Positions 3,196 to 63,258 of a stretch of DNA of 64,000 nt are shown piece after piece. The DNA is taken from contig NC_045696.1 in the NCBI RefSeq assembly GCF_009834535.1, positions 12,030,001 to 12,094,000 of the forward strand, written 5' to 3'. This DNA is from Camelus ferus (taxonomy: Eukaryota). The position numbers were made by a program, and so were the translations under genes. Position 1 is the stretch's first letter. Each line of letters begins with the position of its first letter. The notes below the pieces were generated by a model. That model was not told where the DNA came from. It did not search any database and saw nothing but the letters and a program-made list of their open reading frames with translations.

Positions 3196-4158
3196 ATGGG
3201 AAACGCAGAAAGTCAAAATGTAGTGCACGAGTTTTATGGAGAAAAGCATGCCAGCCTGGGGCGCAAGCACACGTCGCGCTCCCTGCGCCTCTCGCACAAG
3301 GCGCGGCGGACCAGGCACGCCTCCTCGGGGAAGGCGATCCACAGGAACTCCGAAGTGAGCACCCGGTCCAGCAGCACTCCCAGCATCCCCCAGTCCCTGG
3401 CCGAAAATGGCCTGGAGCCCTTCTCCCAGGAAGGCACCCTAGAGGACTTCGGGAGCCCCATTTGGGTGGACCGAGTGGATATGGGCTTGAGACCCGTGTC
3501 TTACACCGATTCTTCCGTCACTCCCAGCGTAGACAGCAGCATCGTCCTCACGGCAGCCTCTGTGCAGAGCATGCCAGACTCGGAGGAGAGCAGGCTTTAC
3601 GGGGATGACGCTACATACTTGGCTGCGGGAGGCAGGAGGCAGCATCCCTGTACACCCAATGGGCCCACTTTCATGGAGACCGCGAGCTTTAAGAAGAAAC
3701 GCTCCAAATCTGCAGACATCTGGCGGGAGGACAGCCTGGAATTCTCACTCTCTGATCTGAGCCAAGAACATTTAACAAGCAACGAAGAAATCTTGGGTTC
3801 CGCCGAGGAGAAAGACTGTGAGGAGGCTCGGGGGATGGAAGCCCGGGCGAGTCCGCGGCAGCTCAGTGCCTGTCAGCGTGCCAATTCGCTGGGGGACTTG
3901 TACGCTCAGAAGAACTCAGGGGTGGCGGCGAACGGGGGGCCGAGGAGCAAATTTACAGGCTGTTGTCGGAATTTGGTGTCTGACATTCCCGATCTTGCAA
4001 ACCATAAGATGCCACCAGCTGCCGCTGAAGAGGCTCTTCCGTACAGTAATTATAACACACTTCCCTGTAGGAAATCTCACTGTCTTTCCGAAGGTGCCGC
4101 CAACCCGCAAATTAGCCATAGCAACAGCATGCAAGGCAGAAGAGCAAAAACAACTCAG
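3196..4158 (+). CDS. TIAM1: TIAM1 first coding exon (963 nt CDS, codons 1-321); the exon begins at 3185 with 11 nt of 5'UTR
   Basis: Poly-pyrimidine tract plus acag acceptor (AG 3183-3184). Kozak accATGg. MGNAES myristoylation motif and RSKSAD/RANSL 14-3-3-type sites. Donor CAG|gtaaag at 4159. Confidence 0.98.
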
Positions 4159-17687: not shown

Positions 17688-18135
17688 GATGTTAATGCAG
17701 GTGAGGGTAGCGAGTTTGCCGACAGTGGGATCGAAGGAGCCACCACCGACACGGACCTCCTGTCCAGGCGATCCAATGCCACCAACTCCAGCTACTCGCC
17801 CCCCACCGGCCGCGCCTTTGTGGGCAGCGACAGTGGCAGCAGCTCCACCGGGGATGCAGCCCGCCAGGGGGTATACGAGAACTTCCGACGGGAGCTGGAG
17901 ATGAGCACCACCAACAGCGAGAGCCTGGAGGAGGCGGGCTCCGCACACAGCGACGAGCAGAGCAGCGGCACCCTGAGCTCCCCGGGCCAGTCCGACATCC
18001 TGCTCACGGCCGCGCAGGGCACGGTGCGCAAGGCAGGCGCCCTGGCCGTCAAGAACTTCCTGGTGCACAAGAAGAACAAGAAGGTGGAGTCGGCCACCCG
18101 GAGGAAGTGGAAGCACTACTGGGTGTCCTTGAAAG
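17688..18135 (+). CDS. TIAM1: TIAM1 coding exon 2 (448 nt): DVNAGEGSEFADSGIEGAT... to start of the N-terminal PH domain (...HYWVSLK G)
   Basis: Acceptor cccaag|GAT, donor AAAG|gtaaga, phase 0 to 1. Contains the SEFADSGIEGAT phosphodegron region and the QGVYENF tyrosine motif. Confidence 0.98.
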
Positions 18136-22540: not shown

Positions 22541-22713
22541 GGTGCACGCTCTTTTTCTACGAGAGTGACGGCAGGTCCGGCATAGACCACAACAGCATCC
22601 CCAAGCACGCCGTCTGGGTTGAGAACAGCATCGTGCAGGCCGTGCCGGAGCACCCCAAGAAGGACTTCGTCTTCTGCCTCAGCAACTCCCTGGGCGATGC
22701 CTTCCTCTTTCAG
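22541..22713 (+). CDS. TIAM1: TIAM1 coding exon 3 (173 nt): PHn domain (G)CTLFFYESDGRSG...GDAFLFQ
   Basis: Acceptor ttcctcag|GG, donor CAG|gtttgt, phase 1 to 0. Confidence 0.97.
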
Positions 22714-37672: not shown

Positions 37673-37897
37673 ACCACCAGCCAGACGGAGCTGGAGAACT
37701 GGATCACCGCCATCCACTCTGCCTGTGCAGCCGCTGTCGCAAGACACCACCACAAAGAAGACACGCTCCGACTCCTGAAGTCAGAAATCAAAAAACTGGA
37801 ACAAAAGATTGACATGGATGAAAAGATGAAGAAAATGGGTGAGATGCAGCTGTCTTCAGTCACCGATTCAAAGAAGAAGAAAACTATTTTAGATCAG
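37673..37897 (+). CDS. TIAM1: TIAM1 coding exon 4 (225 nt): end of PHn and coiled coil TTSQTELENWITAIHSAC...KKKKTILDQ
   Basis: Acceptor tgacag|ACC, donor CAG|gtaatt, 75 open codons. Read manually because the ORF track does not report this frame. Confidence 0.97.
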
Positions 37898-39816: not shown

Positions 39817-40003
39817 ATCTTCGTTTGGGAGCAAAACCTGGAACAGTTCCAAATGGACCTATTTCGTTACCGCTGCTATTTAGCTAGTCTCCAGGGTGGG
39901 GAGCTGCCGAACCCTAAAGAGGCTACTTGCTTTTGCAAGTCGGCCAACGAAAGTGGCAATGGGCCGCCTTGGAATCTTTTCTGTGTCATCTTTTCATGCC
40001 CTG
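39817..40003 (+). CDS. TIAM1: TIAM1 coding exon 5 (CC-Ex region, [34 protein letters not shown] / [28 protein letters not shown]), carrying a +1 frameshift at 39916-39919
   Basis: Acceptor ctgtag|ATC, donor CTG|gtgagt. Length is 187 nt, and the conserved peptide is split across two frames at cct-aaa-g-agg. Confidence 0.95.
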
Positions 40004-45355: not shown

Positions 45356-45502
45356 GTGGCCGCACGCACTGGTGAAACTGGAGTCAGAAGACGTACTCAG
45401 GCCATGTCCAGATCCGCAAGCAAGCGAAGGAGCAGGTTTTCTTCTCTTTGGGGTCTGGACACTACCTCCAAAAAGAAGCAGGGACGCCCAAGCATCAATC
45501 AG
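45356..45502 (+). CDS. TIAM1: TIAM1 coding exon 6 (147 nt): VAARTGETGVRRRTQAMSRSASKRRSRFSSLWGLDTTSKKKQGRPSINQ
   Basis: Acceptor cctcag|GTG, donor CAG|gtgggt, phase 0-0. Confidence 0.97.
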
Positions 45503-47883: not shown

Positions 47884-47958
47884 GTGTTCGGTGAGGGAAC
47901 TGAGGCTGAAAAGAAATCTTTAGAGGGAATATTTGATGACACTGTTCCAGATGGCAAG
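47884..47958 (+). CDS. TIAM1: TIAM1 coding exon 7 (75 nt): VFGEGTEAEKKSLEGIFDDTVPDGK
   Basis: Acceptor gtgcag|GTG, donor AAG|gtaaaa, phase 0-0. Confidence 0.95.
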
Positions 47959-50569: not shown

Positions 50570-50740
50570 AGGGAGAAAGAAATGGTCTTACCCAGCGTCC
50601 ACCAGCACAACCCTGACTGTGACATTTGGGTCCACGAGTACTGCACTCCATCCTGGTTCTGTCTGCCAAATAATCAGCCAGCCCTGACCGTCGTCCGGCC
50701 TGGGGACACGGCCCGGGACACCCTGGAGCTGATCTGCAAG
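50570..50740 (+). CDS. TIAM1: TIAM1 coding exon 8 (171 nt): REKEMVLPSVHQHNPDCDIWVHEYCTPSWFCLPNNQPALTVVRPGDTARDTLELICK (start of RBD)
   Basis: Branch-like gctaac, acceptor atcccag|AGG, donor AAG|gtatga, phase 0-0. Translated manually. Confidence 0.96.
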
Positions 50741-56839: not shown

Positions 56840-56944
56840 ACACATCAGCTGGATCATTCCGCTCATTACCTGCGCCTGAAATTTCTAATAGAAAACAAAA
56901 TGCAGCACTACGTCCCAAAGCCCGAGGAGGACATTTACGAGCTG
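56840..56944 (+). CDS. TIAM1: TIAM1 coding exon 9 (105 nt): THQLDHSAHYLRLKFLIENKMQHYVPKPEEDIYEL (RBD)
   Basis: Long poly-T tract, acceptor tcgcag|ACA, donor CTG|gtaatg, phase 0-0. Confidence 0.96.
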
Positions 56945-63176: not shown

Positions 63177-63258
63177 CTGTACAAAGAAATTGAAATCTGT
63201 CCAAAAGTCACTCAGCACATCCAGATTGAGAAGTCAGATACAGCCAGTGATAATTATG
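63177..63258 (+). CDS. TIAM1: TIAM1 coding exon 10 (82 nt): LYKEIEICPKVTQHIQIEKSDTASDNY(G), leading into the PDZ domain
   Basis: Acceptor tttcag|CTG, donor TATG|gtatgt, phase 0 to 1. Confidence 0.95.

Follow-up and report, generated by a model that had tools for sequence, protein, structure and literature searches.

An extra base in coding exon 5 of TIAM1 in a Camelus ferus assembly is most likely a consensus error and not a loss-of-function allele

Does the camel behind assembly GCF_009834535.1 carry a broken copy of TIAM1, or does the assembly carry a base that the camel does not? The question is raised by a stretch of 64,000 nucleotides of Camelus ferus DNA (contig NC_045696.1, positions 12,030,001 to 12,094,000 of the forward strand; hereafter the window, in which positions are counted from the first base), where the fifth coding exon of TIAM1 is one base too long for its reading frame. 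If the base is an artefact, the assembly is not trustworthy at the single-base level in coding exons, and claims of gene loss drawn from it need read support. If it is real, a large mammal carries a naturally occurring loss-of-function allele of TIAM1, which bears on Rac signalling in neurons and on the genetic load of small camel populations. The frameshift is most likely not a real feature, and the evidence for this comes from the gene itself, from other long exons of the same assembly and from the same exon in other animals.

The window contains the first ten coding exons of TIAM1, all on the + strand. The exon chain was built by a search in which every GT or GC donor and every AG acceptor in the vicinity of the tblastn pieces was considered, and this left one solution per junction. 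Coding exon 1 (3196-4158) begins with the ATG at 3196 and encodes residues 1-321; its translation is 100% identical to TIAM1 isoform X1 of C. dromedarius (P0003, 1591 aa) and to that of C. bactrianus (P0123), and 99% identical to that of alpaca. Exons 2 (17688-18135), 3 (22541-22713), 4 (37673-37897) and 8 (50570-50740) were likewise placed by tblastn and the splice chain, while exons 7 (47884-47958, 75 nt) and 9 (56840-56944, 105 nt) encode residues that are absent from the 1531-aa human isoform 2. Exon 6 (45356-45502, 147 nt) lies between the acceptor cctcag, followed by GTGGCC, and the donor gtgggt, preceded by AATCAG, and reads VAARTGE...PSINQ. The earlier note on this DNA had named the gene TIAM1, and the name is right: the exon translations are 100% identical to camel TIAM1, as against 42-75% identity for the paralogue TIAM2 on C8.

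Residues 855 and 1355 are the two at which the camel proteins P0003 and P0123 differ. At residue 855, which is carried by coding exon 10 (63177-63258), the window shares S with C. bactrianus, whereas C. dromedarius and alpaca have G, a substitution that groups the window with Bactrian-type camels. The translation of every exon present, S855 included, is identical to C. bactrianus TIAM1 (P0123; XP_010954898.1, XP_045373793.1 and XP_074216818.1).

Coding exon 5 (39817-40003, + strand) encodes part of CC-Ex. Its borders are canonical ag/gt, with the acceptor cctgtag directly ahead of ATC at 39817 and the donor gtgagt directly after the CTG that ends at 40003, and they enclose 187 nt; borders and length are as the earlier note had given them. 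Read in frame 1, the exon begins IFVWEQ, continues to GGELPNPK and then yields 28 unrelated residues, and a conserved 28-residue stretch of TIAM1 resumes in frame starting at 39920. When the camel TIAM1 protein is compared with the exon by tblastn, the match correspondingly falls into two pieces, one in frame 1 and one in frame 2. The site of the surplus base is 39913-39922 on the + strand (CCTAAAGAGG), where the extra letter is either one A of 39916-39918 or the G at 39919. The frameshift is a direct reading of the sequence and involves no statistical signal.

Spliced as written, the shifted frame runs for 68 codons from the start of exon 5 to its stop, which amounts to 34 correct and 34 aberrant residues, and ends at a TGA in exon 6 (45373-45375, + strand) that precedes the exon 6/7 junction by 127 nt and has many further exon junctions downstream of it. 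The predicted product as written is 637 + 34 = 671 aa. The +1 shift, the 34-residue tail, the position of the stop and the length of about 671 aa that had been claimed for this locus were thus all reproduced. An isoform with an alternative first exon (P0195) also includes exon 5. On the Pfam assignment of P0123, the break falls inside CC-Ex (572-669) and upstream of RBD (767-839), PDZ (854-914), DH (1044-1232) and PHc (1241-1410, the second PH domain in that assignment), which agrees with the claim that the protein would be cut within PHn-CC-Ex and would lose RBD, PDZ and DH-PH. Under the established rule for NMD, a premature stop has to precede a later exon junction by more than 50-55 nt. Were the allele real, the TGA at 127 nt before the junction would make the transcript a predicted NMD substrate, and the earlier designation of the message as such a substrate follows from this rule.

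Outside this one position the gene matches its Bactrian counterpart exactly as far as it can be followed. The coding sequence up to 39918 corresponds to residues 1-637 of P0123 and that from 39920 to residues 638-1122, in both cases exactly, and one more exon extends the exact match to residue ~1158. Since the chain matches P0123 on both sides of 39919, exactly one base is surplus; when one base is dropped, the gene shows neither another lesion nor an amino acid that departs from C. bactrianus TIAM1 X1 up to ~1158. Relative to P0123, then, the gene in the assembly differs in having one extra base in exon 5 and in being without exons for residues ~1159-1591.

These missing residues comprise the latter half of DH together with PHc and the C-terminus: the domain order PHn-CC-Ex, RBD, PDZ, DH, PHc is seen in P0123, whereas the exons in the assembly reach only mid-DH (~1158). 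Exons for residues ~1159-1591 were not found in the 138 kb downstream (C1:12,135,829-12,274,000; L006-L019), and when the same residues were compared with the whole assembly, only the TIAM2 paralogue on C8 answered. There are 100-N gaps at C1:12,139,199-12,139,298 and C1:12,196,589-12,196,688, one of which lies 3.4 kb after the last exon found. The earlier statement that every other exon is intact is therefore true only to ~1158 and fails for the remainder, which is absent from the assembly.

A frameshift in a gene whose 3' third is missing from the assembly might be read as an old pseudogene, or as a loss of TIAM1 throughout the camel lineage. This reading is contradicted by the presence of a single lesion in 1158 codons with no amino-acid difference from the C. 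bactrianus protein, and by the full-length proteins annotated in C. bactrianus, C. dromedarius and alpaca, with which the lesion is not shared; the missing part, moreover, abuts an N gap. We give it a probability close to nil. The earlier note had offered a choice between an assembly indel and a recent allele and had set an old pseudogene aside, and the single lesion and the exact match to P0123 bear this out as a statement of alternatives. Its two branches are far from equally likely, and what separates them is the state of other genes in the same assembly.

As a control for frame breaks elsewhere in this assembly (2.087 Gb in 2043 contigs), long exons were located via short domains and the open frame around each was read out. 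Human BRCA2 exon 11 is one open reading frame of about 1640 codons. Its counterpart here (L036, C14:17,331,800-17,338,800, - strand) consists of four open reading frames, in frames 2, 3, 2 and 3, i.e. three frame changes, and seven BRC repeats sit in open frames of 657, 201 and 474 aa; almost certainly, the breaks are errors of the consensus. In MAP2, the large exon for the projection domain (L037, C5:64,432,800-64,438,200, - strand) shifts a single time, out of frame 1 and into frame 2, near C5:64,434,772-64,434,788. The three breaks in BRCA2 exon 11 and the one in MAP2 are not credible in a living animal, from which it follows that the assembly contains single-base consensus errors, mostly insertions.

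The clustered protocadherins (C3, 98.32-98.86 Mb) gave 50 strong matches, a count from which a weak, partial one within the cluster and two short ones outside it are omitted. In 46 of the 50 the frame is open for 788-996 aa, and in the other four for 320, 399, 422 and 693 aa. The four broken exons (L028, C3:98,563,400-98,567,400; L029, C3:98,718,000-98,722,000; L030, C3:98,332,200-98,336,200; L031, C3:98,369,500-98,373,500) have one +1 break each, and each is made up of two long open reading frames, in frames f and f+1, that jointly span the exon. Comparison of L029 with a neighbouring paralog gives a clean CAG versus CAAG difference; L030 and L031 show a one-base surplus relative to their paralogs, though these are too divergent for certainty, and L028 did not align. 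Some of these four breaks could be real, because genes of this kind tolerate loss.

Altogether, the long exons of the control add up to roughly 184 kb and contain eight frame changes, or ~1 per 23 kb, and seven of the eight are of the +1 type, as in TIAM1. The remaining controls were intact: RAG1 is open for 1056 aa, the three IRS genes (IRS1/2/4) for 1554, 1396 and 1329 aa, APC for 2219 aa and APC2 for 1659 aa, as are eight non-clustered protocadherin exons at 829-1099 aa. At ~1 per 23 kb, the 3.5 kb of TIAM1 coding sequence in the assembly would be expected to hold only about 0.15 breaks. With the coding sequence of the genome at ~35 Mb, by our own estimate, spurious frameshifts in the whole assembly should number on the order of a thousand at the control rate.

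That frame breaks of one base recur in BRCA2, in MAP2 and in four exons of protocadherins makes an artefact by far the likelier of the two branches, and we consider that the extra base at 39916-39919 is very probably a single-base consensus insertion error of the assembly. If so, exon 5 of the source animal would be 186 nt long, the gene would encode the normal 1591-aa Rac-GEF, and neither a truncated protein nor NMD would be expected. We infer that the base is absent from the animal's reads. Some findings pull the other way: with many long exons clean, the error rate is no more than moderate and the number of breaks expected in TIAM1 is low; the intact camel proteins were annotated in other animals, which is compatible with a private allele; and the site has just three A in a row, not a long homopolymer. 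Watson and Warr reportedly drew attention in 2019 to frame-breaking consensus indels in assemblies. The TIAM1 break resembles such indels in draft and long-read assemblies in being a single-base break in an otherwise perfect gene and in recurring, as a type, in other long exons of the assembly. Long-read errors are described as introducing frameshifts and premature stops that pseudogenize genes (PMC12007338).

The same exon in other animals is unshifted wherever it could be read. The proteins annotated for C. bactrianus (P0123, three XP accessions) and C. dromedarius (P0003, three XP accessions) are full length and unshifted at the site, alpaca TIAM1 (P0004) has the same residues there, and none of the three carries a low-quality label in its source name. 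The two Camelus proteins come from other assemblies, from which the base is absent as judged from the annotated proteins. Among 230 fetched vertebrate TIAM1 proteins, the conserved exon-5 stretch is identical in 220, differs by one or two residues in three and is missing from seven. The comparison with other camelids and vertebrates that the earlier note had looked to thus gives an unshifted exon in the camelid proteins and in 220 of the 230 vertebrate ones. The shifted tail, by contrast, occurs in none of the 230. A 42-aa query that included the first eight residues of the tail likewise found no full-identity match among 548 longer proteins and three of similar length, in a collection whose sizes seemingly do not extend down to short exon open reading frames of ~52-54 aa.

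DNA of related loci gives the same picture. The related-locus search returned vertebrate host contigs with a 186-nt exon, none of them from camel. The metagenome contigs L020/L025 (Ga0181612_123063), L021 and L024 carry vertebrate TIAM1 exons 4 and 5 and represent host DNA. In L020, L021 and L024 the exon measures 186 nt between ag/gt borders, and the 128-nt alignment of L020 with the window has its sole gap inside exon 5. A DNA pattern that discriminates between the alleles matched neither metagenome contigs nor contigs of prokaryote genomes. In an index of sequencing runs, the best nine runs, from several studies, each contained 0.98 of 125 sampled words and none contained 1.00; one fixed one-base difference would cost ~3 sampled words, in keeping with this, although the missing words could fall elsewhere and a word filter could give the same figure, and the index is given no weight here.

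The unshifted exons also bear on the idea that the frame is restored by a programmed +1 ribosomal frameshift or by RNA editing. Nothing speaks for such a mechanism beyond the need for a +1 shift. The orthologous exons of 186 nt and the colinearity of all fetched proteins contradict it, as the site is not conserved, and the zero frame at CCT AAA GAG has neither a stop nor a rare codon. Of all the readings weighed here, we hold it the least probable.

A further reading is that the sequenced camel does carry the base, as a real and recent germline insertion in the heterozygous or homozygous state. Translation of the full-length message would in that case end at 45373-45375, NMD would degrade the message, and any product would be the 671-aa fragment without RBD, PDZ and DH-PH. 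The base does stand in the assembly; mutations that add one base to a short run are of a common kind; and the lack of decay elsewhere in the gene fits a very young allele as well as it fits an artefact. On the other hand, a private frameshift in a gene so conserved is much rarer than the artefact rate, and with BRCA2 and MAP2 broken in the same manner, an artefact is the simpler explanation. Annotated proteins show an intact TIAM1 in alpaca and two species of camel, vertebrates share an invariant exon, and the occurrence of the shifted tail in no protein of a large collection weighs slightly in the same direction. With the small share for a rescue by exon skipping included (see below), we regard a real allele as unlikely.

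What such an allele would resemble can be gathered from human patients and from mice, for which we draw on excerpts of one paper (PMC11246155). According to these, biallelic TIAM1 variants cause a neurodevelopmental disorder in which seizures occur (NEDLDS, OMIM 619908; Lu et al. 2022); Tiam1 knockout mice are viable, with neuronal defects and reduced spine density, and loss of the Rac-GEF affects dendrites and synapses (PMC11246155). The viability of the knockout mice means that a carrier could live, and the disorder caused by biallelic loss-of-function variants in humans counts against the allele. The human NEDLDS cases are biallelic missense, which sets them apart from the camel change, a frameshift and probably not real. 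A literature search for TIAM1 and camel brought up no title on camel TIAM1 among the matches listed.

There is finally a version of this reading in which a real insertion does no harm. The end of exon 4 and the start of exon 6 are both in phase 0, so that skipping of exon 5 would join the two in frame (TILDQ to VAARTGE) at the cost of 62 CC-Ex residues, and three Marmota models (P0053, P0065 and P0100) indeed join TILDQ directly to VAARTGE. These, however, are predicted models from draft genomes; that 220 of the 230 proteins show the exon unchanged points to a need for it, and the insertion would have to be real in the first place. We consider such a rescue very improbable. A young TIAM1 frameshift allele in a Bactrian-type camel, as either a natural knockout or an exon-5-skipping hypomorph, is accordingly an outcome to which we attach a low probability overall, and a consensus insertion error continues to be the reading that we prefer.

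The seven proteins without the conserved exon-5 stretch comprise the three Marmota models that join exon 4 to exon 6, three with intronic read-through and one that ends early. The models of the first two kinds (P0053, P0065 and P0100 from Marmota, and P0048, P0054 and P0062) either skip exon 5 in frame or substitute intronic read-through for it, and an annotation pipeline might handle exon 5 of the window in the way that it was handled in those draft-genome models.
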